From the IMG/VR virus record IMGVR_UViG_3300009104_001476: 64,000 nt of DNA. One strand, given 5' to 3'. This stretch comes from a virus. Shown here piece after piece: positions 22,053-49,255 of the stretch. Position 1 is the first letter of the stretch, and each line of letters begins with the position of its first letter. The notes under the pieces were generated by a model, which saw only the letters and a list, made by a program, of their open reading frames with translations, was not told where the DNA came from and searched no databases. The position numbers and the translations under genes were made by a program.

Positions 22053-22063
22053 TTATAAGTGTT

Positions 22064-22761: not shown

Positions 22762-22777
22762 ATGTTATTATATTATA

Positions 22778-23581
22778 ATGAATGTCGGAGTAATTGGAAA
22801 TGGTTATGTGGGTAACGCTACAAGCGTTATGGCGAAAAATCATAAGGTAAAAGTGCACGATAAAGATGAATCTAAAAGCGATTCCTCATTAAAGGAACTT
22901 GTTTCTTCTAGCGATTTGATTTTTATATGTGTCCCGACTCCTATGCGTATAGATGGTTCTTGCTGTACGGATATAGTCGAGAGCGTTGTGTCTCAGCTAA
23001 GGCAGTTGAGGGTAGATTTAAATAAGGTTGTGATAAGATCTACTGTACCAGCAGGAACTTCTGAATCTTTAAACTGCAACTTTATGCCTGAATTTTTGAC
23101 CGAAAAAAATTGGGAAAAAGATGTGCTTAATTGTAAAGAGTGGGTATTTGGAGTTCATGATGAAAAAGATTTTAATAAGGATTTATTGTTTGAATTAGCT
23201 GATGGGAAAACGATACATTACTGTACGACTAAAGAAGCTGAACTTTGTAAAAACATTAGGAATGCTTTTCTAGCGACAAAGGTTTCATTTTTTAATGAGG
23301 TTTATGAGCTTTGCGATAAGCTTGGTGTAGATTACGAACAGGCTAAAAAATTAATCTTACTAGACTCAAGAATCAGCGCAAGTCACACGCAAGTTCCCGG
23401 CCATGATGGTAAAAAGGGTTTTGGTGGAACTTGTTTTCCTAAAGACATTCGTTCGTTACTTTTTCAAATGCACGAGGTAAACATGAATAGTTACATTCTA
23501 GAAGCCGCCATAAATAGAAATGAGATTATCGATAGGCCAGAAAAAGAGTGGGAGAGCAATAAAGGAAGAAGTGTCGTTTAA
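22778..23581 (+). CDS. UDP-glucose/GDP-mannose dehydrogenase family (short form without the C-terminal domain)
   Basis: GNGYVG, ICVPTP, RSTVP, PEFL, FGGTCFPKD. Confidence 0.92.
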   Translation: MNVGVIGNGYVGNATSVMAKNHKVKVHDKDESKSDSSLKELVSSSDLIFICVPTPMRIDGSCCTDIVESVVSQLRQLRVDLNKVVIRSTVPAGTSESLNCNFMPEFLTEKNWEKDVLNCKEWVFGVHDEKDFNKDLLFELADGKTIHYCTTKEAELCKNIRNAFLATKVSFFNEVYELCDKLGVDYEQAKKLILLDSRISASHTQVPGHDGKKGFGGTCFPKDIRSLLFQMHEVNMNSYILEAAINRNEIIDRPEKEWESNKGRSVV

Positions 23582-23589
23582 ATTTTTTT

Positions 23590-23666
23590 GCTCTTGTAGC
23601 TCAATTGGATAGAGCATCTGCCTTCTAAGCAGAGGGTTCTGGGTTCGAGTCCCAGCGAGAGTACCA
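23590..23666 (+). tRNA. tRNA-Arg (anticodon TCT) with encoded CCA
   Basis: Acceptor GCTCTTG/CGAGAGT, D arm, anticodon stem TCTGC-CTTCTAA-GCAGA, GGTTCGAGTCC T arm. Confidence 0.95.
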
Positions 23667-23704
23667 TTTTTTTTATTTTGACGTCTTTTGACTTATAATA
23701 AAAC

Positions 23705-24112
23705 GTGGAAGACTTAAGAATCGTTGTCGTGAGTGGATATTTTGACCCCCTTCACGTAGGCCATATAGAATATTTAGAGTTAGCTAAAAGCCTTGGGGAT
23801 AAATTAATTGTTATTGTTAATAATGATAAGCAGGCTTCTCTAAAAAAGGGGGAACCTTTCATGAAAGAGCAGGATCGTTTGATTATCGTGAGTTCTTTAA
23901 GATGCGTGGATAACGTGTTCTTATCTATAGATGAAGGTAAAGACGTTTGTAAAAGTTTAGCTTATCTGAACCCAGACATTTTTGCTAATGGTGGTGATAG
24001 ATTAAATAGAGAGATTCCCGAGGCAAAAGTGTGTGACGAGTTAGGTATAGCTTTAGTAGACGGTTTAGGCACAAAAATAAGATCATCTTCTGACTATACA
24101 GGATTAAAATAA
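23705..24112 (+). CDS. Cytidylyltransferase-like nucleotidyltransferase (HIGH family)
   Basis: SGYFDPLHVGH, NGGDR, KIRSSS; GTG start. Confidence 0.9.
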   Translation: MEDLRIVVVSGYFDPLHVGHIEYLELAKSLGDKLIVIVNNDKQASLKKGEPFMKEQDRLIIVSSLRCVDNVFLSIDEGKDVCKSLAYLNPDIFANGGDRLNREIPEAKVCDELGIALVDGLGTKIRSSSDYTGLK

Positions 24113-24140
24113 TTTATTATTTTTTATTATTTTTAATATT

Positions 24141-25103: not shown

Positions 25104-25138
25104 AATAGGGTGTCTTATTGGTGGGGGTATCCTATACT

Positions 25139-25176
25139 AAAACGTGGCGGCTGAAATATGTCGTCACGTTTTTTAT
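25139..25176 (+). terminator. Rho-independent terminator
   Basis: AAAACGTGGCGGC-tgaaatat-GTCGTCACGTTTT plus T tail. Confidence 0.7.
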
Positions 25177-25208
25177 TTATTTTTTAAAATTCTCTGAAAC
25201 ATTTTATA

Positions 25209-26549: not shown

Positions 26550-26553
26550 AACT

Positions 26554-27807: not shown

Positions 27808-27810
27808 TAA

Positions 27811-30177: not shown

Positions 30178-30208
30178 TATTAATAGATCAGACGTTCTCT
30201 CTCAGTCA

Positions 30209-31525
30209 TTGGATTTTTTCCCAGAAGAATGGGTGAAAAATTTCCCGTGGCTGTCTGGCGTCGACAATGGTGTGGCGGACCCCCAGTATAGGTTATTAAA
30301 ATATTTATCCAGCATCCATGACGGAGTAACTATATTAGATTTTGGGACAAGCCAAGGTCATTCAGCTTTAGCTTTAGCTCAGAACAAAAGCAATAAAGTT
30401 ATTACTTATGGCCTTAATCTTAATGGCGGGGCGGTTTCTCTTCTGGGCAAAGCTCCTAATGTTGAAATCGCAGCCCTTTCCGTCCAAGAAATAGAAGAGG
30501 AAGTGATTCTTTCTTCTTCATTCGTATTCTTGGATCTTGACCCTCATGATGGCATACAGGAGGCGGGGGTCATTGAAAGACTAAAGTCGATTGGCTACAA
30601 GGGGTTTGTCGTGTGTGATGATATTAACTGGCCAGCAGGTATGAAAGAATGGTGGGATAGTGTCGACTTAAATAAATATGACGTTACGGAAGTAGGACAC
30701 GCTTCAGGAACAGGAATAATATCTTTTAGTAATGAAGAGTTCAATGTCATACAGGATAGAAAAAAGGATTATAATTATTGCTTCACCGCCTTAGCGATAG
30801 GCAAAGAGTACGAAGATCTGTCTGTAAAGCGCTACAATTCCCTAAGAGAAAAAACTAAATCGTGTGATTTTCATTTAACAGTCAATAATTCAGAACTGCA
30901 AGACTTGGGAGACAGGGCTTTCCTGAACGAGTTACATTTGGACAAATTTAGAGACGAGGGGAGGCCGCAGTTTGGTTGTTATTTAAATATGAAGTGTCTT
31001 GCTCTCAAAGCGACTTTAGAAAAATATTCTGGAAAGCATTATGATTATATAGTATACACAGATGGAGATTGGCAAATGCATGACAAATTTGAAGAAGAAA
31101 AAGTTTTTAAATGCTTTGATTTACTAGAAGAAAATGAAAATTTAGATTTCATTTACGAAAGACCCGGCACCGTTGGCGACCACAAAAAAACTCCCGACAA
31201 TTTAAGGCAGGCGTGGGCTACGGTAAAAATTGAAGACTACAACCTTCGGGATCATGACCTTTGGGATGATGCGATAATGCCCAATGAGCAGATTTATATA
31301 TTTAAAAATAGTTGGAAATTTAAAATGTTTGTTCAAGAGTGGGAAAAATTTTTGTGGTATACCGTAGCGAATAACATGGATAATTTTGGAGAGTGCTTCG
31401 AGACAGGAGTATCAGCTCTATTGGCGGGGATGAAAGGTACGTGGCATCCTTTTCATAGCGGTTCCGTATTAAGTCAGTGTTTTTATTTTTACTGTAGGAA
31501 TGGGATACGCCATGAAAGATTTTAA
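30209..31525 (+). CDS. Methyltransferase-like N-terminal domain fused to a putative glycosyltransferase-like domain (TTG start)
   Basis: ILDFGTSQGHSAL, VCDDI; YTDGD in the C-terminal half. Confidence 0.6.
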   Translation: MDFFPEEWVKNFPWLSGVDNGVADPQYRLLKYLSSIHDGVTILDFGTSQGHSALALAQNKSNKVITYGLNLNGGAVSLLGKAPNVEIAALSVQEIEEEVILSSSFVFLDLDPHDGIQEAGVIERLKSIGYKGFVVCDDINWPAGMKEWWDSVDLNKYDVTEVGHASGTGIISFSNEEFNVIQDRKKDYNYCFTALAIGKEYEDLSVKRYNSLREKTKSCDFHLTVNNSELQDLGDRAFLNELHLDKFRDEGRPQFGCYLNMKCLALKATLEKYSGKHYDYIVYTDGDWQMHDKFEEEKVFKCFDLLEENENLDFIYERPGTVGDHKKTPDNLRQAWATVKIEDYNLRDHDLWDDAIMPNEQIYIFKNSWKFKMFVQEWEKFLWYTVANNMDNFGECFETGVSALLAGMKGTWHPFHSGSVLSQCFYFYCRNGIRHERF

Positions 31526-32225
31526 AGACAAAATAATTTCTTTTAGTCTGTATAATCACCCTTCTAAAGCGGGCGACCTAACTTATTACATTGGGGCTGA
31601 AAAAAATTTAAAGTTAAATAATCGTTTTTTACCTGATTGGAAAACGGTCATTTATTATCATAAAGACAGAATTGATGAGGAGTGGGTTCCTAAACTTGCT
31701 GATCTAGGAGCTTGTATGATTGAAGTGTCAGAAAACGAGCGTTTAAAGGGGGAGCTTTCAACTATGCAGGATATGATGTGGAGACTTTTAAGCATTTATG
31801 AAGAAAATGTATGCATAATTAGAGACTTAGATAGTAGAATGACTCAGAGAGAAGCGAATTATATAAATGATTGGCTTAATTCCGAGTGTAAATATTTCAT
31901 AATAAGGGATCATCCTTGGCACGCGTCAGTTCCCGGTGGCTTATTCGGGATTAAAGGGGCGGATAAAAAGCTTGAGGATCATATTTCTGATTTCTTAAAA
32001 AATAATGAGCTTGTTTGGGGATCAGACCAAGAAATGTTAGCCCTTTACAGAGAGAACAATATTGATGATAAAGATTTATATTATTGTGGTTACGATGATC
32101 AAAAAAATTATATACCAAGAGATGATAAAGGTTTTTTCATAGGGGTACAGGTTGACGAGAACGATAAAATAACTAAAGAGAATTCAATATTAGCATTAGA
32201 AATGTTAGAGGAGATGAACCTATGA
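31512..32225 (+). CDS. Putative GT-A-like glycosylation protein
   Basis: IISFSLY, MMWR, IIRDLDSR, RDHPWH, GGLFG, DQEML. Confidence 0.55.
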   Translation: MKDFKDKIISFSLYNHPSKAGDLTYYIGAEKNLKLNNRFLPDWKTVIYYHKDRIDEEWVPKLADLGACMIEVSENERLKGELSTMQDMMWRLLSIYEENVCIIRDLDSRMTQREANYINDWLNSECKYFIIRDHPWHASVPGGLFGIKGADKKLEDHISDFLKNNELVWGSDQEMLALYRENNIDDKDLYYCGYDDQKNYIPRDDKGFFIGVQVDENDKITKENSILALEMLEEMNL

Positions 32226-32914
32226 TTAAAAATTGGAAATACGGGCCATGCTATGGAGCAGGAAGGCCCTTTATAAAAGAATACATAAAAGAAAATAATT
32301 TTAATACTATAGACGTTGGTGCGTCAGCACGTTATTGGTCTTACCCCGAGTGTAAAGTCGTTGTGGATAGTTATCACCCAAATTATTTTGCGCAAGCACT
32401 CGGCCGCCCAAATCCTAATTATCAAGATGTTTTATTTTTCGATTTAAATATCGAAGATGTGGACAGTTGGAACGAGATATTAGAGTACGTAGACGATAAT
32501 GATAAGTTCGATTTTTCGATTTGCTCACATACATTAGAGGATGTTTTCAATCCGATTGACCTCGCTCGGATGTTGGAAAAAGTATCACATCGAGGCTACA
32601 TCGCAGTGCCTTCAAAATATGATGAACTTACAAACCTCTTTGGCCACCCTTACAGGGGTAACGCGCATCATAAGCAAATATTTGACGTTGTTGAGGATGA
32701 ATTAGTTATATATCCTAAATTCTCTTGGATAGAAACGGATGGAAGAAGTGATAAAATTGTAGAAAATTCTTTGGGTCCTGAATTAGAATTGACATGGGAG
32801 GGGGAAATTCCGATAAAGGTATTTCCCTCGCTGCCGCCCAATCTCGCCGGCCATGGAGGTGATGAAGGATTAATAAATAGATATTACCAAGAGCTAATGA
32901 TGAAAAGAAAATAA
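32222..32914 (+). CDS. Class I SAM-dependent methyltransferase-like protein
   Basis: IDVGAS, FDFSICSHTLED. Confidence 0.7.
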   Translation: MIKNWKYGPCYGAGRPFIKEYIKENNFNTIDVGASARYWSYPECKVVVDSYHPNYFAQALGRPNPNYQDVLFFDLNIEDVDSWNEILEYVDDNDKFDFSICSHTLEDVFNPIDLARMLEKVSHRGYIAVPSKYDELTNLFGHPYRGNAHHKQIFDVVEDELVIYPKFSWIETDGRSDKIVENSLGPELELTWEGEIPIKVFPSLPPNLAGHGGDEGLINRYYQELMMKRK

Positions 32915-32921
32915 AAATATT

Positions 32922-33974
32922 ATGAAAACTATAAAAGTGTCTAGACAGGGGTTCGCTAACTTTGGGTGTCATAGTTGGCTTAGATATATTATGTTTGTTT
33001 TATCTAAAAAATACAACGTTATAATTGACGCCGTTAATCCAGATTTAATTTTGCAAACGAATTGGCAAGTTGATTATAACGAGGTAGATCCTCAAACCAA
33101 AGAGTTACCTACAGATTTTAAACCAGAAGAAAATAAAAACATAAAATTCTTACGTGTTACAGGGGAAGCGGGTGCGGATTCCTTCGCACTTAAAGATGAG
33201 AATGTTTGGATTATGGACTATCAAAATCTTGATCACCCTAGACATTTAAGGCAACCGTCAGGAGCTTTTGATGTATGGACTATGTTTGACGAGGCTAGAG
33301 TGGTGGATTCTCCTTTGTCTTGGTTGACAGAAAAAAGAGATTATGAAAAAATTAAAGATAGAAATACGGGCCTCTGTTGCGTAACTCAAAATAGTAATAG
33401 TGACCTTAGGGCAAAAATATTTGATAAACTTAGTGAATATAAACAGGTTGTATCTTCTGGTGCTTGGAGAGGTAATGCGGCAGTAGAAGACAAAGACCAG
33501 AATGGAAACATATCAGCACGGAAATGGGGTGACAATCCTATATATAGGGGTAGACATGACGGTTTAGTTTATAAGGAAAAAATAGAATTTTCTAATAACT
33601 ATAAGTTTTTCATGGCTATTCATTGGACAGATACAGACTATATTCTTCAAGAGAAAATTTATCATGGGTTTTTCTCAGGGTGCATACCCTTGTTTTATGG
33701 TAATAAATATATTTCTGAAGTGGATAAGTTTAATCCCGATTCTTTTATTAATCTTCATGATTATTGTTCTTCAGAACAAGGGAAAATACAAGATTGGAAA
33801 AATTATCAAGATATAGACCTTGATAAACTTTTAGAAGACGTGAAAGAGATTGATACTAATGAATCTTTACGTAAAAAATATATAGAGGCTCCTATATTCA
33901 TAGACAATAAACTTCCGGATTATTATAGCTTCGATTACGTTTTAGACTTCTTAGAGAGAATGATAGAGAGTTAG
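32922..33974 (+). CDS. GT10 (alpha-1,3-fucosyltransferase)-like protein, divergent
   Basis: KQVVSSG, YKFFMAI..DYILQEKI..GCIPLFYG, FNPDSFINLHDY. Confidence 0.7.
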   Translation: MKTIKVSRQGFANFGCHSWLRYIMFVLSKKYNVIIDAVNPDLILQTNWQVDYNEVDPQTKELPTDFKPEENKNIKFLRVTGEAGADSFALKDENVWIMDYQNLDHPRHLRQPSGAFDVWTMFDEARVVDSPLSWLTEKRDYEKIKDRNTGLCCVTQNSNSDLRAKIFDKLSEYKQVVSSGAWRGNAAVEDKDQNGNISARKWGDNPIYRGRHDGLVYKEKIEFSNNYKFFMAIHWTDTDYILQEKIYHGFFSGCIPLFYGNKYISEVDKFNPDSFINLHDYCSSEQGKIQDWKNYQDIDLDKLLEDVKEIDTNESLRKKYIEAPIFIDNKLPDYYSFDYVLDFLERMIES

Positions 33975-33982
33975 CTTGGAGA

Positions 33983-34978
33983 ATGAACATTTTAATAACA
34001 GGAGTGGCGGGTCTTTTAGGCTCTAGATTAGCGGATTGGATAATAGAAAATACCGATAATAAAGTTATTGGTATTGATGATTTAAGTGGTGGCTATATAG
34101 AAAACGTGAACCCAAAGGTCGAATTTCATGAATTTAATTTAATAGACTTAAATAAAGTCGATGAGATTTTTAAAAATAACCATATAGATATAGTCTATCA
34201 CTTTGCGGCTTACGCTGCGGAAGGATTAAGTCCCTTTATTAGAAAATTCAATTATGAAAATAATTTGATTTCGTCTGTGAACTTAATTACAAGCAGTATA
34301 AAATATAATATATCCAGATTTGTATTTGCTAGCTCTATGGCTGTGTACGGAGATGAACATAAGCCCCCATTTGACGAGGAGTTAACGTTAAGACCCATAG
34401 ACCCCTATGGAGTAGCAAAGTATTCCGTAGAACAAGATTTAAAAATAGCGCATGAGCAGCACGGTTTAAACTATACGATTGTTAGACCTCATAATTTTTA
34501 CGGCGTTAATCAAAACATTTGGGATAAGTATAGAAACGTATTAGGTATCTGGATGTATCAAATCATGAACGGGATGCGACCAACGATCTTTGGTGATGGC
34601 TCGCAGAAGAGAGCATTCAGCTACGTAGACGATTCAATTATCCCCCTTTGGAATGCCTCTCAGAAAGATGATTGCGTAGGCCATGTTATAAACCTAGGAG
34701 GAATAGAAGAGTGCTCTATACAGGAAGCCTGCAATACCGTGTTAAAAGTTACAGGGACCGAACTGAAGCCCTCTTACCATGAATACAGGCATGAAACTAA
34801 ATATGCTTGGTCTACTTGGCGCAAATCCGCAGAATTACTTGATTTTAAATACGAGACAAGCCTAGAAGAGGGTCTTACGAAGACATGGGTTTGGGCTCAG
34901 GCTCAGCCCAATAGAGAAAGGTTCATTTGGCCCAGCTATGAATTAGAGAAAGGCGTTTACTCTTACTGGAAAAGATAA
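33983..34978 (+). CDS. NAD-dependent nucleotide-sugar epimerase/dehydratase
   Basis: TGVAGLLG, HFAAYAAEG, YGVAK, RPHNFYG. Confidence 0.93.
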   Translation: MNILITGVAGLLGSRLADWIIENTDNKVIGIDDLSGGYIENVNPKVEFHEFNLIDLNKVDEIFKNNHIDIVYHFAAYAAEGLSPFIRKFNYENNLISSVNLITSSIKYNISRFVFASSMAVYGDEHKPPFDEELTLRPIDPYGVAKYSVEQDLKIAHEQHGLNYTIVRPHNFYGVNQNIWDKYRNVLGIWMYQIMNGMRPTIFGDGSQKRAFSYVDDSIIPLWNASQKDDCVGHVINLGGIEECSIQEACNTVLKVTGTELKPSYHEYRHETKYAWSTWRKSAELLDFKYETSLEEGLTKTWVWAQAQPNRERFIWPSYELEKGVYSYWKR

Positions 34979-37518: not shown

Positions 37519-37546
37519 TTGCAAAATGATATTATAAATTTATAAT
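37519..37546 (+). promoter_or_regulatory. sigma70-type promoter TTGCAA-16-TATAAT
   Basis: ATG 6 nt after the -10 box. Confidence 0.6.
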
Positions 37547-37552: not shown

Positions 37553-38110
37553 ATGAGGTTAGATCATATAGCTTACAGATCTAAAGATCGTAATAAGACC
37601 GCAGAATTCTTCGCGGACACCCTTGGTTATACAATAGGCACAGAGTTTCAGGTAAAGTTTGATGACGGAGGGAAAGCCGACTGTTTAGCCTTAGTTCCGC
37701 CAGAGAATAGAACTGAAGAAACTAACCTCTGGAGACTCGAGACCTATCTCTCCATGAACGAAATTGAAACGGAAAGTCCCGTAGAATATCATGCTCCACC
37801 TGAAATTTTTGTTAGTGACGGCCCTGAAGGGAGTATTGTGGGTGATTGGGTTGCCGATCGCGGTGGCGTTGGCGGTATTCATCACATCGCTTATCAAGTG
37901 GAAGATGTGGAAAGAACAATGAAGGAGTGGAAGGGCAAGGGGTATGCTGAATTTTATTCAGAAGAACCTATGACTTGTCCCGGCCTTACTCAAGTTTTTA
38001 CAAAACCATCCGAATTAACAGGAGTTATTTATGAGCTTATATCTAGAGAAGGTAAAGGGTTTTGCGAGCTTAATGTTAAAGGACTTATGCAAAGCACTAA
38101 AGGAGAGTAA
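37553..38110 (+). CDS. VOC/glyoxalase-superfamily metalloenzyme
   Basis: RLDHIAY, GIHHIAYQVEDV, QVFT, YELISR. Confidence 0.85.
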   Translation: MRLDHIAYRSKDRNKTAEFFADTLGYTIGTEFQVKFDDGGKADCLALVPPENRTEETNLWRLETYLSMNEIETESPVEYHAPPEIFVSDGPEGSIVGDWVADRGGVGGIHHIAYQVEDVERTMKEWKGKGYAEFYSEEPMTCPGLTQVFTKPSELTGVIYELISREGKGFCELNVKGLMQSTKGE

Positions 38111-38111
38111 C

Positions 38112-39641
38112 ATGAGAGATTTCGAAGGTAGAAATTACATAAACGGAGAGTGGCGAGCTACTTCCGAAATGTATACAAAAATTAATCCGTCAACGGGTAA
38201 AGCTCAAGGGGCGTTTCCGTCAAGCGGCCCAAGTGAAGTTTCTAAAGCTGTACTGTCTGCGAGAAAAGCTTTTAAAAAATGGAGAAAGGTTAGCAGGTTT
38301 GTTCGTTCTGATTATATGAACAAGGTCGCTCAAATTATTGAAAGAGATAAAGAAAAGTTGGCTAAAATCATATCTTTAGAAACGGGTAAAAATTATAATG
38401 AAAGCATCGCAGAGGTTAATGAGGCTTTGCATATGGCTCAATTTGCTTTCGGCTCTGGTCGTTATAGCCATGGAGAGGCAGTATCTTCAGAGATTGAAGA
38501 TAAAGATGCTTACATGCTTAGGAAGCCTAAAGGTGTAATAGCTATCGTAACTCCTTTCAACTTTCCTCTGGCAATAGGTATGTTTTGGAACGCTGCACCA
38601 GCATTGGTGGAAGGAAATACAATAGTAATTAAACCAAGTGAAGATGCTCCGATGTCAACTCAAGCGGCTGTTCAAATTTATGCGGAAGCTGGTATCCCAC
38701 GTGGAGTCATTAATTTGGTGCATGGTGACGGTACTACTGGCAACCTTTTGGTTCATGATGATGTTGATCATATTTGTTTTACTGGTAGTGCCGATGTCGG
38801 ACAGCATATTCGTAAAGTGGCTGCAGAGTCTTGGCATAAGACTACCTCTTGTGAACTAGGCAGCAAATCTGCTTGCATCATTTTTGATGACGTTGAATTT
38901 AAATTAAGCATGGAGGCTGCGATCGCAAGCGCTTTTAAATTATCAGGGCAACGGTGTGTCTCTTCTGGTAGAATGATAGTGCAAAGAACTATCTATAGCG
39001 AGTTCGCAAAAAGATTTGCGGAGGAGGCGGCAAAATTAAAGACAGGGAATCCATTCAAGTCCATGCTTGGCACCTCAGGCTGCCCAGATGGTATGGTTTG
39101 GGAAGAGCTTGTGGCTGACGAAGACGTTTATTATGGTCCGATTATAAATGAGCAAGGGTTTTCTAAAATTAGGAGCATGAATAAAATGGTTATAGATGAC
39201 CCAGAAGCCGAAGTCCTTTTAGCTCCAGCTTACACCGGAGACCATAAATCTTATTACTCTACCCCAATGGTATATAAAACCGAGTGGAGAGACGTAAAGT
39301 ATTTAAAAAATGAGGTGTTTGGTCCTCACGTGGCGATTATCCCTTTTGATACGATGGAAGATGCGATTCGTATTTATAACGATACAGATTACGGTCTTGC
39401 GGTTGGGATTTTAACTAACGATTTTAGAAAAGCGAGAGTTATGAGGGACGAATGTGACGCAGGTATGATCTATTGGAATGGCGGGTCAATCGCAGCGGAA
39501 TCTCACTTAGCTTTTGGAGGAGTTAAGAAGTCCGGAAACGGATTCCCAAGCGCGGCCAGAACTTTTAGAGCAGTTACTCATGAAATAAGCTGGACTGTGA
39601 ACCATGCAGATGCTCTAACTTTTCCTCAGGGGATGAAGTGA
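38112..39641 (+). CDS. Aldehyde dehydrogenase (candidate aminoadipate-semialdehyde / P5C-type)
   Basis: TPFNFP, KPSE, FTGS, ELGSK (Glu), GQRCVS (Cys), EVFGP, FGGVKKSG. Confidence 0.95.
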   Translation: MRDFEGRNYINGEWRATSEMYTKINPSTGKAQGAFPSSGPSEVSKAVLSARKAFKKWRKVSRFVRSDYMNKVAQIIERDKEKLAKIISLETGKNYNESIAEVNEALHMAQFAFGSGRYSHGEAVSSEIEDKDAYMLRKPKGVIAIVTPFNFPLAIGMFWNAAPALVEGNTIVIKPSEDAPMSTQAAVQIYAEAGIPRGVINLVHGDGTTGNLLVHDDVDHICFTGSADVGQHIRKVAAESWHKTTSCELGSKSACIIFDDVEFKLSMEAAIASAFKLSGQRCVSSGRMIVQRTIYSEFAKRFAEEAAKLKTGNPFKSMLGTSGCPDGMVWEELVADEDVYYGPIINEQGFSKIRSMNKMVIDDPEAEVLLAPAYTGDHKSYYSTPMVYKTEWRDVKYLKNEVFGPHVAIIPFDTMEDAIRIYNDTDYGLAVGILTNDFRKARVMRDECDAGMIYWNGGSIAAESHLAFGGVKKSGNGFPSAARTFRAVTHEISWTVNHADALTFPQGMK

Positions 39642-40087
39642 TGAATGGAAAGGGAGATAAACCAAGACCTATGAATTTCAAAAGGTATCATCAAAATTAT
39701 GATGCTATTTTTAGTAAAAAAAAAGGAAAGAAAATGGAATTCCATATAGCGACAAAAGGAACGAAAGAGGATCAAAAACCTGTCGTCCTCGTAGACATTG
39801 ACGAAACTATTTGTTTTTACTCTGGTAATCGTAGATACGACCTAGCTGAACCGAGTAAAGAAAACATCGGCAAAATAAACAAGATGTATGACGAAGGGTG
39901 GAAAGTTATATATTGGACAGCTAGAGGTTCCGTATCAAAAAAAGATTATTATCAATACACTTGGGATCAGTTGGAGTCTTGGGGCTGTAAGTTCCATGAC
40001 TTATCTACAGGTACAGGAGGAACACACCCAAAACCTAATTATGATTTAGTTATTGACGATAAAGCAAAAAGAATAGAGGAAATATAA
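39638..40087 (+). CDS. HAD-family phosphatase-like protein with a short N-terminal GKGDKPRP extension
   Basis: LVDIDETI, YWTAR, PKP.YDLVIDDKA. Confidence 0.75.
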   Translation: MMNGKGDKPRPMNFKRYHQNYDAIFSKKKGKKMEFHIATKGTKEDQKPVVLVDIDETICFYSGNRRYDLAEPSKENIGKINKMYDEGWKVIYWTARGSVSKKDYYQYTWDQLESWGCKFHDLSTGTGGTHPKPNYDLVIDDKAKRIEEI

Positions 40088-40089
40088 TT

Positions 40090-40194
40090 ATGGCTAACAA
40101 AGAAAAGAGAAAAAAAGAAAAAAAGAAACCTGCTAAAAAGACACCAGCGGAAAAAAGAAAAGAGAAGAGAGAAAAGAAAAGAAGAGGCAAGTAA
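40090..40194 (+). CDS. 34-aa very basic peptide (not in track)
   Basis: MANKEKRKKEKKKPAKKTPAEKRKEKREKKRRGK; its TAA abuts the next ATG. Confidence 0.6.
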   Translation: MANKEKRKKEKKKPAKKTPAEKRKEKREKKRRGK

Positions 40195-41289
40195 ATGAGA
40201 GCTTATGTTCTAGGAGTCGGCAGGATGGGAACAGCCATTGCTTGGGCGATGGATAAATTAGGTTTTGAAGTGACAGGTATGGACACTAACCCTGACGCCG
40301 CAAACAATATGACAGGCTCTTTTTTTGTTGTTGATGACGCGGATGATATTTGTAAAGGCATCGTAGCAAACGGTCCAAGGCCAGACATTGTTATTAGCAG
40401 CTTGCCTTACCACCAAACGGAAGTGGTAGGCAAGTGGTGCGTAGATAACGAAGTACGCTATTGCGACTTAGGCGGCAGAGTAGATGTCTCGAAAAATATT
40501 AATGATCACGCCGAGCAGTTTGCGACTCGACCAGTTTTCACAGATTTAGGCTTAGCTCCCGGCTGGGTAAATATATTAGCCGAAGAGGGATGCAGGAAAT
40601 TCCATGGCTCTGCTGAAGAAGTTAAAATGATGGTCGGGGGCTTACCCGACTATTTAGAGAGCTCGAATAATCCATTGCGTTACGCACTTACTTGGTCTGT
40701 TGATGGATTGATCAATGAATATAGAGACGATTGCCTTATCCTTGAAGACGGAGAAGTAAAAACTGTAAAAGGAATGTCTGGGGTAGAACAGATAGAGGGC
40801 GAAAAGTTTGGACCCATGGAGGCTTTTTATACAAGTGGTGGCGCGTCACATTCAATTCACGACATGCAACGAAGAGGAGTTAAGAATTGCTCCTATAAAA
40901 CCATAAGGTACAGGGGTCATGGAGATATGGTTAGATTTTTGATTAGAGATTGCGATCTAGACGATGGAGCGTTAACTAAAATTTTCCGAGAAGGTTGCGG
41001 TACGGTAGATAAAGACGAGGTGTTTATCGTAGCAGAAGTGAAGGGCGGGGATAAAACTTGGAGACAGGAGAAGGTGATCAAATCTGACGAACAATTTTCA
41101 GCCATGCAAAAAGCTACGGCGTTTTCCATTTCCTCTGTAGCAGCGATTATGGCTCAAGGAAAGCTAGAGGGGAACATGGAACAGCGTAGAGACTATTGGA
41201 CTCAGTACCCAGCGGCCTTATCTTATGATAATGTGCCTTTTAATGAATTTAATAATAACTTAGAAAGATTATTGACTAGTGCTTTATAA
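40195..41289 (+). CDS. Saccharopine dehydrogenase / lysine 6-dehydrogenase family oxidoreductase
   Basis: GVGRMG, YCDLGG, GLAPG, VGGLP, YALTWSVDGLINEY, EAFYTSGG, YKTIRY.GH. Confidence 0.9.
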   Translation: MRAYVLGVGRMGTAIAWAMDKLGFEVTGMDTNPDAANNMTGSFFVVDDADDICKGIVANGPRPDIVISSLPYHQTEVVGKWCVDNEVRYCDLGGRVDVSKNINDHAEQFATRPVFTDLGLAPGWVNILAEEGCRKFHGSAEEVKMMVGGLPDYLESSNNPLRYALTWSVDGLINEYRDDCLILEDGEVKTVKGMSGVEQIEGEKFGPMEAFYTSGGASHSIHDMQRRGVKNCSYKTIRYRGHGDMVRFLIRDCDLDDGALTKIFREGCGTVDKDEVFIVAEVKGGDKTWRQEKVIKSDEQFSAMQKATAFSISSVAAIMAQGKLEGNMEQRRDYWTQYPAALSYDNVPFNEFNNNLERLLTSAL

Positions 41290-42391: not shown

Positions 42392-42562
42392 ATGGCTAAA
42401 AAACACAGAAAATATTTTAGGACTAAAAAAGGCAAGAAAGCTTTAAGAAAAGCGCGTAAAGCTTATGACGAGAGAGACCCCGAAAGAAGAAGACGTCAGA
42501 AAAGAGAGTACATGAGGAGGAAAAGGCAAAAAGAAAGAGAGCAAAGAGAGGAAATAGAATGA
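42392..42562 (+). CDS. 56-aa Arg/Lys-rich protein (not in track)
   Basis: MAKKTQKYFRTKKGKKALRKARKAYDERDPERRRRQKREYMRRKRQKE...; overlaps next ATG. Confidence 0.6.
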   Translation: MAKKHRKYFRTKKGKKALRKARKAYDERDPERRRRQKREYMRRKRQKEREQREEIE

Positions 42563-43473
42563 ATGTCCTTTTAACATCTGTGGGCTGTATGGGTTATGTG
42601 GGCTTAATAAAAGCTTTTCAAAAAGAGGAGTGTAAAGTTTTTGGCGTAGATTGCTCCAGTGATGCTGTCGGTTTTAGTTTTTGTGATGGCTCCGCAGTAG
42701 TCCCTCACGGAGATAACGAAGCTTACACCACTGAATTATTAAAAGTCTGTAAGGATTATAATATAGAATTAATTGTGCCTTCTTCTGATAACGAAATATT
42801 AAAAGTGGCAGAGGACAGGCCGATGTTTGAAGGCTTGGGCGTGTCGGTATTATTGCCTTCTGACAACTCTTTGAGGATTTGTAATGATAAGAGTCATTTT
42901 TATGAGCACTTATTTGGGTGGGGCATACTCCATCCGGAAGTTCGTAACCCTTTAGACGCAGAATTTCCAGCTATACTAAAACCGAAAGTGGGAAAAGGCT
43001 CCACGGGTGTTCGTGTTATCACGAAGATGGATCAGTTAAAACCGTGGAGGGAGTGGAATACAAATTGCATTCTTCAAGATTTTATAAAAGGGGATGAATA
43101 TACCGTAGATATTCTAGCGAATAAGAGTTCTACAATTTTGTCTATGGTTCAAAGAAAAAGAACTCGCGTAGAATCTGGAATTAGCGTGGCGGCGGAAGTG
43201 GTAGAGGATGAGCATGGTAGAGCCATTTGTAGCCAGCTAAACGATAGATTACAGATGCGCGGAATGTACTGTGTTCAATACATCAAGAACTCAAACGGCA
43301 TATATGTATTAGAGATTAACCCTAGATTTGGCGGGGGGAGCGTTTTATCTTTAAGAGCTGACCCTACAATTATTTTAAATTATTTAAACATTGCTCAAGA
43401 TAAGCCTATAGAGGTCTTATGCGATCCAGCGAAAATAAAAATGAGGCGTTATTATGCGGAAGTCTTCGAATAA
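42559..43473 (+). CDS. ATP-grasp ligase (CarB/PylC-like)
   Basis: ICNDK, ILKPKVGKGS, QDFIKGDEYTVD, LEINPRFGG. Confidence 0.9.
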   Translation: MNVLLTSVGCMGYVGLIKAFQKEECKVFGVDCSSDAVGFSFCDGSAVVPHGDNEAYTTELLKVCKDYNIELIVPSSDNEILKVAEDRPMFEGLGVSVLLPSDNSLRICNDKSHFYEHLFGWGILHPEVRNPLDAEFPAILKPKVGKGSTGVRVITKMDQLKPWREWNTNCILQDFIKGDEYTVDILANKSSTILSMVQRKRTRVESGISVAAEVVEDEHGRAICSQLNDRLQMRGMYCVQYIKNSNGIYVLEINPRFGGGSVLSLRADPTIILNYLNIAQDKPIEVLCDPAKIKMRRYYAEVFE

Positions 43474-44164
43474 AGTACTAGTAATTAGCCCTCATTCTGA
43501 CGATAGTGAATATGGCTTAGGAGGTACTATTATTCGCCATTTGCAGGAAGGGGATTATGTCCATATAGGGTTAGTTGTCGCGGATTCTGTAGATTTCGTT
43601 CACGTGGACAGCGCTATTGTCCCTAGCGATGTCAGGGTTAGAGAATTTATGGAGGTTATACAAGCTTATTCCAAATATGGGAATATAAGGTCTAGCATAT
43701 GGATGACAGACGAGACGAATGATTATGGTTTTGGTTTGGAAAGCAGGCTCGACGCGATACCCATTCGAGACGTAGTGAATTATGTAGAGAAAGAGATGAA
43801 AAGCCTTAAACCTAACGTATTATATTATCCGAGTAAAAGTCACCATCAGGATCATCGCGTGGTTTACGAAGCTTGCTCGACTGCTTGTAGGCCGACCCAG
43901 CCGTTTTTACCAGACGAAATATATCTTTACGAGTTGCCCACCTCTTTTTGGAATAACAATAAAGAGAGATATTTCGTGCCAAATACTTATGTTTCAATAG
44001 ATATTGACAAGAAATCAGAAGTGGTGGGGCTTCATAAGTCCCAAATAAGACCTCAAGACAATAAGTTAAGTGCTGAGTCTATAATAGATCAAGCTAAAGT
44101 TAGAGGAGATGAGGTCGGGGAGAGGTATTGTGAGGCTTTTGAGTTAATAAGAAGTAAAAGATGA
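43454..44164 (+). CDS. PIG-L/LmbE family deacetylase
   Basis: PHSDDSEYG.GG, HHQDH, HKSQ, EAF. Confidence 0.9.
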   Translation: MRKSSNKVLVISPHSDDSEYGLGGTIIRHLQEGDYVHIGLVVADSVDFVHVDSAIVPSDVRVREFMEVIQAYSKYGNIRSSIWMTDETNDYGFGLESRLDAIPIRDVVNYVEKEMKSLKPNVLYYPSKSHHQDHRVVYEACSTACRPTQPFLPDEIYLYELPTSFWNNNKERYFVPNTYVSIDIDKKSEVVGLHKSQIRPQDNKLSAESIIDQAKVRGDEVGERYCEAFELIRSKR

Positions 44165-44877
44165 AAATAAATTACTTATTTGATATAGACGGAACCTTGA
44201 CTCCCCCTCGAAGTAAAATGACTAGTGAGTTTTCTTTCTTTTTTTTAAATTGGATGACAGGCAGAAACATTTACTTGGTGACGGGTAGCGATAGGGAAAA
44301 AATTATACAACAAGTTCCAAACAGTATATTAGTTAGGTGCAAGGGTGTTTTTTCATCTATGGCTAACGAATTCAGAAGTGAGGATCAGTTGATTTATAGT
44401 AATGATTGGAATCCTTCCCCTAAGTTAATTAAAGACTTAACAATGATTCGTGCAAGCTCAAACTATGATCTGAAAAAAGAGAATTACATAGAGTACAGGA
44501 AGGGCATGGTTAATTTTTCGGTAGCCGGTAGAGAATCTACCATAAAACAAAGGCGGAGATATTCGGCTTGGGATAAAGAGAATAATGAAAGAGAAGGTAT
44601 CGTAAAAACCTTAAGAGCTAAATATAAAAGGCTTGAATTTTGTCTAGGCGGAGAAATAAGCATAGATATACAGCCGAAAGGCAAGAATAAGTCTCAAGCG
44701 AGCAAATGGATTCGTAAATATGAAGGTGGAAAAATAGTATTTTTTGGAGATAAATGCATGGAAGGCGGGAATGATTATGATATTGTTGAAGATATCAAAA
44801 AAAACAAGAAGGACAAGTATTTTCAGGTTGACAATTTTTTAACTACCCGTAAACTATTAGAAGCGGATGAAGAATAA
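44161..44877 (+). CDS. Eukaryote-type phosphomannomutase (HAD IIB)
   Basis: FDIDGTLT, GMVNFS, GGEISIDI, FFGDK..GGNDY. Confidence 0.88.
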   Translation: MKINYLFDIDGTLTPPRSKMTSEFSFFFLNWMTGRNIYLVTGSDREKIIQQVPNSILVRCKGVFSSMANEFRSEDQLIYSNDWNPSPKLIKDLTMIRASSNYDLKKENYIEYRKGMVNFSVAGRESTIKQRRRYSAWDKENNEREGIVKTLRAKYKRLEFCLGGEISIDIQPKGKNKSQASKWIRKYEGGKIVFFGDKCMEGGNDYDIVEDIKKNKKDKYFQVDNFLTTRKLLEADEE

Positions 44878-45073
44878 GCAACAAGCTTTAGCTCTGTTGG
44901 AAGATTTAATAGAGGCTTCTTCTAATATAGATGAATTACATAAGAAAAAATCTATACAGGAAGGCAAAGCGGTAAGAGCGGTGGGCGAGAGTTGGCTGTT
45001 GTTCCATTTAAGAGTGTTGCGCGACTTAATTAACGAGGAAGAAGCTCATGGACAAAAAGAAACTAAAAACTAA
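44867..45073 (+). CDS. Hypothetical protein
   Basis: ORF track. Confidence 0.55.
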   Translation: MKNKQQALALLEDLIEASSNIDELHKKKSIQEGKAVRAVGESWLLFHLRVLRDLINEEEAHGQKETKN

Positions 45074-45590
45074 AGACGGTAGCGAATTCACTGTTTTTTA
45101 TTTAAAAACAGAGCCCAAATGGGGAAAAGATAAATTCGGACACAATGCCGATGAGAACAAATACTATTTAACGCCCGAAGAGGCGGAACCTATAGTGCAA
45201 GATAATTACGCTTCTTGGGAAATAAAAGAGGCAGGGCTGTGGGACATTTACGGTCACCTTTATAAAGACCAAGAAAAGTCTTTAGAGGGTGACTTTTTTG
45301 ACTTTCCTTTCCCCTCTTTTGGTTTACCTTTCTCCAAGAAAGAAGAAGTCGTGATAGACGATAGAATAGAGTCGGATGCAGTTTTAACCCCTTTAAAGGG
45401 CTGTGTATATAGATATTCACAAGATATGCGTCTTTATAGGTACGTCTCAGAAAAAATGGTAGATCAGGAGCCCCTTTGGGAGCTTGCAGATAACAAGAAG
45501 AATATTTACCTTGTGCCAGCGGAAGATTGCTATCTTTATGCCGTTAACCAAAACGAGCTAGATGAATTTTTGAGAAAGGAGACTGGCTGA
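45048..45590 (+). CDS. Hypothetical protein
   Basis: ORF track. Confidence 0.55.
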   Translation: MDKKKLKTKDGSEFTVFYLKTEPKWGKDKFGHNADENKYYLTPEEAEPIVQDNYASWEIKEAGLWDIYGHLYKDQEKSLEGDFFDFPFPSFGLPFSKKEEVVIDDRIESDAVLTPLKGCVYRYSQDMRLYRYVSEKMVDQEPLWELADNKKNIYLVPAEDCYLYAVNQNELDEFLRKETG

Positions 45591-45591
45591 C

Positions 45592-46242
45592 ATGGCTTTT
45601 TTAGATGTTAATAACCTACTCTCTACGCCCAAGTGGCGACATATTAGCGGTCAAGGAATGTGTCACAGACCTCACAAAAGGCTTATTTTGCAAAGTTTAG
45701 TTTCCGTTTTAGAGTCTCATGTAGAAGGGGATATAGTCGAGTTAGGTTGTCACGAGGGCGGACTAAGCAAATATCTCAAACTCGTATTAGATTTATACGA
45801 CGTGTACCCGCATCGTAAGAAGCTTTATCTTTATGATAGCTTTGAAGGACTCCCAACCAGTCGCCGTGCTCACGAAGCGGGATGGGAGGGGATGGAGACA
45901 ACAGTAGAGGAAGTCCTCCTATCTTTTGAAATTAATAATATCTCCCCCCCATATAAAATACATAAAGGTTGGTTCAAAGAACTTAAACCGGAGGACTTGC
46001 CCGAAAAAATCGCTTTCGCTTTTTATGATGGTGATTTATATGAGAGTATTTACGATAGCTTTGAAAAGACTTACCACTTGGTTTCCGAAGGGGGTACGAT
46101 AGTAATTCACGATTACGGAGACCCTAGGTTTAAAGGGGTCGAAGAGGCTTGTCTCGATTTTTTAGGGGACAAAGCCCAAGATATTGTAATGTCCGATGAG
46201 TCAGCCGAATGCCGGTTCGTAGGAGTTTTACAAAAAAAATAA
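45592..46242 (+). CDS. TylF/MycF/NovP-family sugar O-methyltransferase
   Basis: EGDIVELGC, YDSFEGLP, GWF, DGDLYES, IHDY. Confidence 0.88.
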   Translation: MAFLDVNNLLSTPKWRHISGQGMCHRPHKRLILQSLVSVLESHVEGDIVELGCHEGGLSKYLKLVLDLYDVYPHRKKLYLYDSFEGLPTSRRAHEAGWEGMETTVEEVLLSFEINNISPPYKIHKGWFKELKPEDLPEKIAFAFYDGDLYESIYDSFEKTYHLVSEGGTIVIHDYGDPRFKGVEEACLDFLGDKAQDIVMSDESAECRFVGVLQKK

Positions 46243-47001: not shown

Positions 47002-47547
47002 ATGGAGAACAAAAATGTTTTAGATAAGACTCGTACCTATTTAGTGGGACATATGCAATACTCCGATGGTAGAGATTGGAGAGAGCATGTCGAAAAAGAG
47101 TTAGAGTCTTTAAACATCACAGTCTTTAATCCTTATAAAAAACCTTTCGTAAAGGATGTCAATGAAGACGAAACTGCTCGAACAAGAATGTCGGAAGACA
47201 TGGTTAATGGTTACTACAGTGATGTAGCCGAAAGGATGAGCACGGTTCGTAGTTACGATCTTAACCTAGTAGATAGATCTGATTTTATTATAGCTCATTT
47301 ACTTCCAGATGTTGCAAGCTGGGGCAGCGCAGAAGAAATTGTTACCGCAGTAAGAATGAAGAAACCTATATTCATTTCAATGGAAGGCGGAAAATCCCAA
47401 ACACCTCTTTGGATTATGGGTATGCTTCCGCATCATTATATTTATGATAGTGTTGATGATGTTTTATCAATGATTCACCAAATAAACGACGGAAATAAAG
47501 CTATTGATAGCGATAGGTGGAGGCTTTTAAGAAAGGAGTTACGATAA
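47002..47547 (+). CDS. Nucleoside 2-deoxyribosyltransferase / nucleotide N-glycosidase-like protein
   Basis: YLVGHM, D..LVDRSDFIIA, GSAEEI. Confidence 0.7.
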   Translation: MENKNVLDKTRTYLVGHMQYSDGRDWREHVEKELESLNITVFNPYKKPFVKDVNEDETARTRMSEDMVNGYYSDVAERMSTVRSYDLNLVDRSDFIIAHLLPDVASWGSAEEIVTAVRMKKPIFISMEGGKSQTPLWIMGMLPHHYIYDSVDDVLSMIHQINDGNKAIDSDRWRLLRKELR

Positions 47548-47550
47548 TCT

Positions 47551-47682
47551 ATGTTACCCGATTGGCTATATAAAATAGAGAGGAAGTTAGATGATTGTAA
47601 TCATATCATGGAGCTAGGTAGAACCTGTTTAGCTCTTTGCACTTTAGTGCTTCAAGTTGTAATACTGTTAAAATTATTTAAT
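47551..47682 (+). CDS. Small membrane peptide (43 aa, not in track)
   Basis: MLPDW...RTCLALCTLVLQVVILLKLF. Confidence 0.45.
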
Positions 47683-47690
47683 GTGATTTG

Positions 47691-48098
47691 ATGAAAACGG
47701 GTTTCGTAGCTAGTTGTTTTGATATGCTTCATGCGGGACATTGTCTTATGTTAAAAGACGCGTCTTTTCAATGTGATCATTTAGTAGCAGCACTTCAGAC
47801 AGATCCGACAATAGATCGTCCGGAAAAAAATAGGCCAATACAGTCTTTCCCAGAAAGAATGCTTCAGCTTGAAGCCGTCCGTTATATTGATGAAATTGTT
47901 GTTTACAATACTGAAGAAGAATTAGTTGAGTGGCTAAAAGTGATTAAGCCAGATGTCCGTATTCTGGGTAGTGACTACAAAGATAAGTTTTATTATACGG
48001 GCAAAGATTTAGAAGAGCACTTAGGTATAGAGATATATTTTCATGATAGAAATTATCATTGGTCTACCAGCGAGTTAAGGGAAAGGGTATTAAAGTGA
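47691..48098 (+). CDS. Glycerol-3-phosphate cytidylyltransferase-like (TagD family)
   Basis: [29 protein letters not shown]. Confidence 0.88.
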
Positions 48099-49255
48099 GA
48101 ATTGAGCCTGAAATGAAGTTAGATTATAAGGACGTTCTTTTGCGTCCTAAGCGTTCAGAGTTAACGTCTCGTAAGGACGTTAATTTGATGCGTGAGTTTA
48201 CCTTTAAGAACGCTGGAGGGGAAGGGTCAGACCCTAAAGCGTATAGCTGGAAGGGCATCCCTATTGTGGCGGCAAATATGGATACCGTGGGGACTTTTGA
48301 AACGGCCAAGGCTCTTGCCCAACATCATATGTTGACTTGTATCAGTAAGCATAGTGATGTAGATAGGTGGATTCATAAGCTGTGTGGCTATGGGGTTTAC
48401 AAAACCAAAGAGCAAAAGAAAGCTAATGAAGGAAGCTGGAAATATGAACGAGGAGCAAAGGATTGGCAAAGCAGAATTTATGACCATATTTGTCCTTCTA
48501 TCGGTATTAAATATGATCCAAATAAAATGGATGATATAGATTATTTAAACAGTATTCAGTGGAACTTTTATCATAATAGGTTCGTATGTATTGATGCAGC
48601 GAATGGATATACATCAAGGTTTTGTGATTTTATTAAACGAGTCAGAGAAGAACACCCCGCTCTTATTATCATAGCGGGAAATGTTGTCACTGGCGAAATG
48701 ACAGAGGAGATATTATTAAGTGGAGCAGATATTGTTAAAGTGGGTATTGGCGGCGGGTCTGTTTGCACTACTCGTATACAAACTGGTGTGGGTTATCCTC
48801 AACTCAGCGCAGTCATTGAATGCGCGGATGCTGCTCATGGGATTGGTGGGCATATTATGGCTGACGGTGGGTGTGTATCTGCTGGCGACGTGGCCAAAGC
48901 CTTTTGTGCTGGTGCTGATTTTGTTATGCTGGGCGGGATGTTGGCGGGTCATACTGAATCAGAAGGGCAAGAGGAAGAAGTAGACGGAGAGAAATATAAA
49001 ACATTTTATGGAATGAGTTCCGACACGGCCATGAACAAATATCATGGCGGAGTTGCGAACTATCGCTCCTCAGAAGGAAAAACAATAAGGATAAAACATC
49101 GTGGACTTATTAAGCATACTGTGGAACATATTCTTGGTGGCTTGCGTAGTGCTTGTACTTATATTGGTGCTAAGGAGTTAAAAGATATGCCTAAGTGCGC
49201 TACCTTTATAAGAGTTAGTCAGCAATCAAACGAAGTGTTTGGAAAAAATATTTAA
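48095..49255 (+). CDS. guaC: GMP reductase (GTG start inferred)
   Basis: [53 protein letters not shown]. Confidence 0.92.

Follow-up and report, generated by a model that had tools for sequence, protein, structure and literature searches.

A candidate lysine-catabolic gene module in an uncultured marine phage

Why would a marine phage carry, one after another, genes for a VOC metalloenzyme, an aldehyde dehydrogenase (ALDH), a HAD-superfamily protein and a dehydrogenase of the saccharopine dehydrogenase family? The question is raised by four open reading frames (ORFs) at positions 37553-41289 of a 64,000-nucleotide stretch, hereafter the window, which is part of a 117.5-kb IMG/VR record from an uncultured marine phage (IMGVR_UViG_3300009104_001476; estimated completeness 69%). 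An earlier reading of this DNA, made from the letters alone and called here the sequence-only reading, had proposed a phage auxiliary module resembling lysine catabolism. The core of that proposal stands after every named refutation test that was run, and we give a phage-borne lysine-catabolic module a probability of roughly 0.55. The evidence comes from the dehydrogenase, the operons of its cellular relatives, the gene clustering in other phages and the conserved residues and predicted structure of the VOC protein.

The viral contig and its dehydrogenase

The contig carrying the module is viral, as had been supposed: a large terminase, a portal-like protein and RIIA are encoded on it, together with DnaB, a primase, an exonuclease and a polymerase of the DnaE/PolIII-alpha type. 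The four ORFs are intact, all lie on the + strand and are closely spaced, in agreement with the tight coupling described before.

Judged by its sequence relationships, the dehydrogenase belongs with L-lysine 6-dehydrogenase (LysDH, EC 1.4.1.18) and not with the polyamine enzymes, which upholds its earlier assignment to the LysDH/saccharopine dehydrogenase type. When the sequence alone was searched against the PDB, the top match, spanning the full length, was PH1688 from P. horikoshii (3abi), which is named L-lysine 6-dehydrogenase in later literature (PMC10413350). A family profile (A1), made from 91 representatives with 32-59% identity to the window dehydrogenase, was likewise aligned with 3abi over its whole length (180.7 bits, E 4e-52), and it scored 94 bits with human AASS and 81 and 68 bits with saccharopine reductases. 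The AF2 model of the protein (pLDDT 94.7) also had 3abi as its best Foldseek match, with TM scores of 0.79-0.84 and an E-value of 1e-24. Furthermore, the protein has the size of LysDH, without the additional ~30-130 residues of saccharopine reductases, carboxyspermidine dehydrogenases (CASDH) and homospermidine synthase (HSS).

A role in polyamine synthesis, as an enzyme of the carboxy(nor)spermidine dehydrogenase or homospermidine synthase type, has to be considered because the superfamily is shared with these enzymes and HSS is known from viruses, having been described in chloroviruses and in phage phiRSL1 (PMC9992855). Nevertheless, such a function is hardly credible here. The CASDH structures (4ina, 8deb, 8h4z) reach only 21-32 bits with the family profile, in an alignment restricted to the Rossmann region (at most profile positions 1-148), their Foldseek TM scores and E-values are poorer than those of LysDH, and HSS is placed well below. 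The additional residues of CASDH and HSS are absent, and the His-Glu-Glu triad of CASDH (PMC10413350) was not found among the invariant columns of the family. Compared with the virus-encoded HSS, the window dehydrogenase would thus be a member of another subfamily of the same superfamily, with another predicted reaction; the survey of viral polyamine enzymes cites lysine 6-dehydrogenase merely as a relative of HSS (PMC9992855).

Concerning the residues that may contact the substrate, Y234, T236, R238 and H242 are invariant among the 91 family representatives and the cellular proteins of the lysDH clade. In a homology model of G. stearothermophilus LysEDH, Y238 and T240 contact the alpha-amino group of lysine and R242 its alpha-carboxylate, and the carboxylate is essential for lysine binding by this enzyme (PMC6697735). 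The phage Y234-x-T236-x-R238 corresponds to Tyr238/Thr240/Arg242 of LysEDH by motif pattern only, and it is on this pattern that the numbering match rests. Both 3abi and saccharopine reductase likewise have the T-L-R arrangement, and the latter binds the same aminoadipate-semialdehyde skeleton.

With the LysDH enzymes (PH1688/3abi, G. stearothermophilus LysEDH and R. pomeroyi SPO0234) the phage protein shares a two-domain saccharopine-dehydrogenase fold of ~365 aa and the motifs VGGLP, TWS..GL.NEY, EAF.TSGG and YKT.RY.GH. An ALDH partner gene is also near, as in Ruegeria pomeroyi, where the lysDH and AASADH genes SPO0234/SPO0235 are adjacent (PMC4334477). On the other hand, the phage enzymes form a separate, mostly viral clade and carry YCDLGG where the cellular enzymes have YFDLTED. 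A maximum-likelihood tree, built with no outgroup, set the phage-type dehydrogenases apart from the cellular lysDH clade with a support of 99/96. Two contigs from metagenome-assembled genomes (MAGs), L177 and L178, binned as Planctomycetota and SAR202, have LysDH-like genes that fall inside the phage clade, and L178 also carries a phage-type ALDH with 61% identity; both contigs probably represent binned phage or prophage DNA. Database annotation was of little help, as no NCBIfam model matched the dehydrogenase, PHROGs gave nothing functionally useful for the dehydrogenase or the VOC protein, and ten distant cluster representatives were all unnamed metagenome proteins.

Cellular operons, the aldehyde dehydrogenase and the VOC protein

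A scan of 185,579 species genomes gave 80 cellular loci, with proteins 30-36% identical (44% in one MAG locus). They are mostly from Burkholderiales, and also from Bosea, Pseudomonas, Coxiellaceae, Legionellaceae and a MAG labelled Akkermansia. An ALDH gene directly follows the lysDH-type gene in 64 of the 80, and the three cellular ALDHs that were scanned (Roseateles, 827 bits; a Coxiellaceae MAG, 756; the MAG labelled Akkermansia, 796) exceed the NCBIfam equivalog cut-off of 730 for L-piperidine-6-carboxylate (P6C) dehydrogenase (P6CDH). Since these neighbouring ALDHs pass the cut-off, the nearest cellular clade is that of the lysDH of lysDH-P6CDH operons. In 17 loci, from Roseateles/Mitsuaria/Pelomonas and related Burkholderiales, the next gene encodes a DUF1338 protein (3iuz, E 1e-106; hydroxyglutarate synthase HglS, 6w1g, E 1.5e-4), which is followed in all but one of them (16/17) by a gene for a GlcD-like FAD oxidase. 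In P. putida, lysine is converted to 2-aminoadipate, 2-oxoadipate and D-2-hydroxyglutarate (PMC7286885), and the cellular lysDH-P6CDH-DUF1338-GlcD set is the one that would be expected for a route from lysine through these types of intermediates (2-aminoadipate, 2-oxoadipate and 2-hydroxyglutarate) to 2-oxoglutarate (PMC7286885).

The phage module resembles these bacterial lysDH-P6CDH(-HglS-like-GlcD-like) operons, for instance that of Roseateles sp. MS654 (L184), in that the three enzyme types are clustered in both and that both include a VOC-superfamily His-His-Glu enzyme with an arginine four residues past the first histidine. The differences are also clear: the phage ALDH is not an ALDH7-type P6C dehydrogenase, the phage VOC protein is a 185-aa single domain resembling hydroxymandelate synthase (HMS) and 4-hydroxyphenylpyruvate dioxygenase (HPPD), which are two-substrate alpha-keto-acid oxygenases, and not a DUF1338 protein, its gene comes first in the phage, and the 117.5-kb phage record yielded no gene resembling a 2-hydroxyglutarate dehydrogenase.

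Regarding the ALDH, its oxyanion Asn150, general base Glu248 and catalytic Cys282 (counting from 38112) do not vary among 37 members of the family, so the intact Cys and Glu noticed earlier are confirmed. The enzyme reached no NCBIfam equivalog cut-off; the best models were those for alpha-ketoglutarate semialdehyde (AlphKGSA_gudD, 318 bits), betaine aldehyde/aminobutyraldehyde (303 bits) and succinate semialdehyde (297 bits) dehydrogenases. Its proposed role, suggested by gene context, is that of an aminoadipate-semialdehyde (P6C) dehydrogenase.

The VOC protein has H5, R9, H80, E84, H110, H111, Q147, E161 and R165 invariant in 29 sequences, as well as a conserved tail, QVFTKP..YELIxR..GFCxxNVxxLMEST. 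This tail corresponds to the stretch that matches the end of the HPPD model TIGR01263, where the C-terminal part of the protein aligns to model positions 304-342 of 353 with 25.8 bits against a cut-off of 277, a match confined to the tail. The sequence profile of the VOC family gave 47 bits with methylmalonyl-CoA epimerase (MMCE) in the PDB and 32 bits, in two pieces, with HPPD. When the AF2 model (pLDDT 89) was compared with structure representatives using VIA-align, the catalytic domain of HMS (2r5v_B) came first, with a Z-score of 17.2 and a root-mean-square deviation of 2.5 over 153 residues, VOC residues 1-185 being aligned to HMS 157-347. MMCE obtained a Z-score of 13.7. The rice hydroxyglutarate synthase FLO7 with 2-oxoadipate (6w1k) took fourth place (Z 12.4, 159 residues aligned), and the other DUF1338 structures gave Z 10.9 (3lho) and 10.3 (3iuz).

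The part of HMS and HPPD that is matched best is therefore their C-terminal catalytic domain, including the C-terminal gating helix, and the invariant His, His and Glu are common to both. The phage protein lacks their entire N-terminal domain (185 aa versus ~350). HPPD carries QH ahead of its second metal ligand, whereas the VOC protein has HH at that place, plus the arginine at His+4. With MMCE it has in common a similar size and the GxHHxA motif, and MMCE is its best sequence-profile match in the PDB, but the C-terminal helix and motif of the VOC protein are absent from MMCE. Against an identity as methylmalonyl-CoA epimerase (TIGR03081) stand the score of 48.7 bits, with an equivalog cut-off of 114.95, and the structural Z-score of 13.7 against 17.2 for HMS. 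On the basis of the structural model and the conserved residues, the VOC protein is probably a single-domain alpha-keto-acid oxygenase taking a dicarboxylic 2-oxo acid.

R9 could be relevant to this substrate type. It lies four residues past H5 in the first strand; in HglS, Arg74 lies four residues past the metal ligand His70, makes a salt bridge to 2-oxoadipate's distal carboxylate and sets the specificity (PMC7286885). The H5/R9 spacing is the same as that of His70/Arg74, an equivalence drawn by sequence spacing alone, and the Roseateles DUF1338 protein shows the motifs DH95xxxR99 and HE314FIQR. Membership of DUF1338 (PF07063), the family of HglS, is another matter, as Pfam gives only Glyoxalase families for the VOC protein and its hhalign comparison with the Roseateles protein was not significant (probability 0.3%). 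The sequence-only reading had linked the VOC protein with HglS; that link keeps the structural ranking, with HMS first and FLO7 fourth, and the arginine at His+4, and loses the family membership. A bolder proposal is that the 185-aa protein represents a minimal new class of 2-oxoadipate-decarboxylating hydroxylase, in which an HMS/HPPD-like domain would carry out the HglS reaction, and that abundant marine phages, including huge phages that have the VOC gene alone, combine it with a viral LysDH and ALDH and so convert the lysine of the host during infection into 2-oxoglutarate, ammonia and NAD(P)H. We put this forward tentatively, as a possibility that is more doubtful than likely.

A putative lysine route and its gaps

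If the module acts on lysine, the LysDH-like enzyme would convert it to 2-aminoadipate 6-semialdehyde, in equilibrium with P6C, releasing ammonia and NADH. The ALDH would then oxidize the semialdehyde to 2-aminoadipate with the formation of a second NAD(P)H, and a host transaminase would produce 2-oxoadipate. The VOC protein, acting as a decarboxylating hydroxylase of HMS/HglS type that depends on Fe(II) and O2, could transform 2-oxoadipate into 2-hydroxyglutarate, which host enzymes would oxidize to 2-oxoglutarate. The net effect would be the release of the nitrogen, carbon and reducing power of lysine during infection. From the observed families, conserved residues, clustering and cellular operon parallel, we infer the substrates of the LysDH-like, ALDH and VOC proteins and the physiological purpose of the module, which may be a supply of nitrogen, of reducing power or of an osmolyte.

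The HAD protein contains a DIDET sequence of the DxDxT type, with other matches that are weak and sub-threshold (HAD_PNKP and Acid_phosphat_B). It is present in 31 of the 64 phage loci with the module described below, mostly between the ALDH and the dehydrogenase genes.

Four other explanations for the gene set were considered and dropped as unsupported, namely a meta-cleavage pair (extradiol dioxygenase and semialdehyde dehydrogenase), phosphonate catabolism, pyrrolysine-like chemistry involving the PylC-like ATP-grasp gene, and DNA hypermodification.

Clustering among phages and competing explanations

In a large protein collection, the dehydrogenase is represented by 830 clusters and the VOC protein by 1,471, nearly all from marine metagenomes and from contigs of up to ~198 kb. 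Clustered enzyme genes of this kind are present on more than a hundred related phage fragments. With the dehydrogenase or the VOC protein as query, 158 IMG/VR loci were collected. The ALDH and LysDH-like genes occur together within 2.5-11 kb in 64 non-redundant IMG/VR loci, in most of which they are ~0-5 kb apart (median span 4.1 kb). The VOC gene is present in 40 of these 64, nearly always directly 5' of the ALDH gene. Gene order varies, since in L028 the dehydrogenase is upstream of VOC-ALDH and in L022 the VOC gene is separated from the ALDH gene, and some loci have unrelated insertions (ClpP-like, aldolase, methyltransferase, kinase-like). A search of GenBank phages with tblastn gave no matches for the dehydrogenase; it found the VOC gene in only two uncultured huge-phage records and the ALDH gene in only one, standing alone beside uninformative neighbours.

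The L092 sublineage (7 loci) has a six-gene operon with overlapping or abutting ends: VOC, ALDH, arginine-dihydrolase-like, L-lysine 6-transaminase (LAT) family, short nucleotide-sugar-dehydrogenase-like and LysDH-like. The LAT-family protein scores 484 bits with TIGR03251 (cut-off 520.8) and 228 bits with the next family, and the arginine-dihydrolase-like protein scores 254 bits with NF052232, under the cut-off of 450. A lysine transaminase yields the same semialdehyde as LysDH, so a LAT gene next to the ALDH gene independently supports aminoadipate semialdehyde as the ALDH substrate. Moreover, the transaminase and dihydrolase genes point to a wider catabolism of basic amino acids in this phage group. 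The operon and a gene for an RNase_T-family exonuclease (L092:3027-13392) separate two halves of PolIII-alpha that are encoded on their own, with the PHP and NTPase domains on one side and the finger, HhH and OB domains on the other, which suggests that the cassette moves as a unit.

These data bear on the idea that the genes have no common pathway and that VOC, ALDH, HAD and dehydrogenase are independent auxiliary genes of a variable island inherited in one phage lineage. Every gene is found alone in other phages, unrelated genes are inserted between the members as described above, and the surrounding 30 kb form a mixed island of sugar and nucleotide genes. Against this, the clusters persist through rearrangement (L028, L022), the L092 genes have overlapping start and stop codons and their cassette sits between polymerase halves, and the same three enzyme types come together in cellular lysine operons. 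For these reasons we hold the absence of a shared pathway to be quite unlikely.

The lysine reading also has to face the same chemistry with another substrate, in which ornithine would give glutamate semialdehyde, or a diamine an aminoaldehyde, and the ALDH would produce glutamate or an omega-amino acid, so that the module would scavenge basic amino acids or amines in general. The L092 operon lends itself to this, as it has an arginine-dihydrolase-like gene, whose product would supply ornithine, and a separate LAT-family gene, so that the LysDH-like enzyme may serve a different substrate; the ALDH, in addition, scores on the glutamate-semialdehyde, aminobutyraldehyde and succinate-semialdehyde models as well as on P6CDH. 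On the other side, the Tyr/Thr/Arg motif common to LysDH and saccharopine reductase favours an alpha-amino-acid end of the aminoadipate-semialdehyde type, P6C dehydrogenase is associated with the nearest cellular clade, and searches of the 117.5-kb record found no arginine-dihydrolase-like or AdoMetDC-like gene. We consider a different substrate unlikely for the module as a whole, although the presence of LAT beside the LysDH-like gene hints that some family members may take another one, such as ornithine from the arginine-dihydrolase-like enzyme.

Could the module be biosynthetic instead? It might make 2-aminoadipate, pipecolate or another lysine-derived acid, either as an osmolyte or as a substituent of glycans or virions added by the neighbouring glycosyltransferase and ATP-grasp genes. 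In R. pomeroyi, aminoadipate made through the lysDH route has been described as an osmolyte (PMC4334477), and the module is flanked by a glycosyltransferase/epimerase island (17965-34978) and by ATP-grasp, PIG-L and PMM-like genes (42559-44877). In other phages a short nucleotide-sugar-dehydrogenase-like gene also shares an operon with the LysDH-like gene. Nevertheless, the sugar-island glycosyltransferase, ATP-grasp and PIG-L genes of the window did not recur in the 160 related loci examined, and both the VOC oxygenase and the cellular operon parallel indicate breakdown past 2-aminoadipate; a biosynthetic purpose therefore seems improbable.

The short nucleotide-sugar-dehydrogenase-like protein has a counterpart elsewhere in the window (22778-23581) that lacks the C-terminal nucleotide-sugar-binding domain. 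In at least 8 related loci, the homologous gene immediately precedes the LysDH-like gene and overlaps it by codons. A function as a reductase or dehydrogenase in the same pathway is conceivable.

Several observations weigh against a lysine-catabolic module. The identity of the phage dehydrogenase is only 23% with 3abi and 31-34% with cellular lysDH, and the enzyme forms its own clade. The ALDH reaches 266.3 bits on the P6CDH model (NF050084), against the cut-off of 730, scores slightly better on several other ALDH models and is 29% identical to cellular P6CDH. Being so far below the cut-off, it is non-orthologous to ALDH7/P6CDH, so the ALDH7-type assignment of the sequence-only reading has to be abandoned and the substrate is taken from gene context only. 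For the VOC protein, the sequence profile places MMCE above HPPD. The HAD protein is a frequent passenger with no place in the proposed pathway, to which the sequence-only reading had added it. The LysDH-like gene is solitary in L012-L014, L080, L082, L085 and L088, and the VOC gene is solitary, with no ALDH or LysDH-like gene within 10 kb, in ~20 contigs of 35-533 kb, many of them from huge phages and about half >200 kb; these are L096 (LR756511.1), L098 (LR756504.1) and the IMG/VR loci L142-L159, and in LR756511 an ALDH gene is also present, 124 kb from the VOC gene. LAT and LysDH-like genes in one operon would be redundant if both enzymes used lysine. Finally, no aminotransferase (classes I/II, III, DegT) and no FAD-linked oxidase was found in the 117.5-kb record, so the steps from 2-aminoadipate to 2-oxoadipate and from 2-hydroxyglutarate to 2-oxoglutarate would need host enzymes; with the record 69% complete, such absences do not prove that the genes are missing from the phage. 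The set of lysine-route genes expected before is thus enlarged in some related phage operons, by the LAT-family gene, and left without the 2-aminoadipate transaminase in this record.

Gene layout and biological meaning

The features of the locus are collected in Table 1. The single promoter that had been placed ahead of the genes corresponds to a candidate site, TTGCAA-16-TATAAT, although such promoter-like sites are no commoner in the region than in shuffled sequence (15 versus 15.2). The ALDH most likely starts at the ATG at 38112, 1 base past the VOC stop, because its homologues of 509-512 aa start there, and a longer ORF from 38031 overlaps the VOC gene. Co-directional tight packing continues downstream into genes for a sigma factor and dCMP deaminase, so the ends of the operon cannot be fixed. 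A 34-aa candidate ORF missed in the sequence-only reading consists almost wholly of Lys, Arg and Glu and ends exactly at the start of the LysDH-like gene. A small basic protein, a leader peptide and a chance product of an A-rich spacer are all conceivable; small ORFs in the corresponding spot of related loci are unrelated to it.

Other genes of the window were also noted. The sugar island contains two SDR epimerase/dehydratases, two GT60-like GlcNAc transferases, and HtrL/GT2 and GT10-like proteins. Downstream of the module, 42559-46242 encodes an ATP-grasp ligase whose N-domain is PylC-like, a PIG-L deacetylase, a PMM-like HAD protein and a TylF-type methyltransferase; neither these genes nor those of the sugar island were seen again beside the module in related loci. 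Further downstream, 47002-49255 encodes nucleoside 2-deoxyribosyltransferase-like and IMPDH/GMP-reductase-family proteins, among further nucleotide-metabolism genes. A single ORF of 2,584 aa occupies 2097-9851.

Table 1. Positions of the module genes and associated features (window coordinates, except the last row, which refers to locus L092)
Feature	Position	Strand	Match or remark
Sigma-70-like promoter candidate, TTGCAA-16 nt-TATAAT	37519..37546	+	6 nt upstream of VOC start
VOC metalloenzyme, single domain, 185 aa	37553..38110	+	Pfam Glyoxalase_4 (E 2e-08) / Glyoxalase
Aldehyde dehydrogenase (ALDH), NAD(P)-dependent, 509 aa	38112..39641	+	Aldedh (PF00171), E 1e-124
HAD-superfamily phosphatase-like protein, small	39638..40087; likely start ATG 39671 (138 aa)	+	phrog_1238, E 3e-23; DIDET motif
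34-aa Lys/Arg-rich candidate ORF	40090..40194	+	Abuts dehydrogenase start
LysDH-like dehydrogenase, NAD-dependent, saccharopine dehydrogenase family, 364 aa	40195..41289	+	Sacchrp_dh_C, E 2e-22 / NADP domain
Nucleotide-sugar-dehydrogenase-like protein, 267 aa, without C-terminal domain; possible module associate	22778..23581	+	Homologue position in other phages
Arginine-dihydrolase-like and L-lysine 6-transaminase-family genes	L092:7181-9168		NF052232, TIGR03251

With respect to novelty, the earlier remark that no such multi-gene pathway was known in phages agrees with our literature search, in which no paper was found linking phage auxiliary genes with saccharopine dehydrogenase, lysine 6-dehydrogenase or the degradation of lysine. 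New here are the link to the cellular lysDH-P6CDH-HglS-like operons, the LAT-containing phage operon, the structural ranking with HMS first and the arginine at His+4.

For enzymology, the divergent viral LysDH clade is relevant to amine-dehydrogenase engineering, and the module offers an ALDH recruited from outside the ALDH7 family and a half-size HPPD-like oxygenase. Lysine is rich in nitrogen, and the microbes of the surface ocean are often nitrogen-limited. If the proposed function is true, amino-acid catabolism would join the known ways in which marine phages rewire the metabolism of their hosts.

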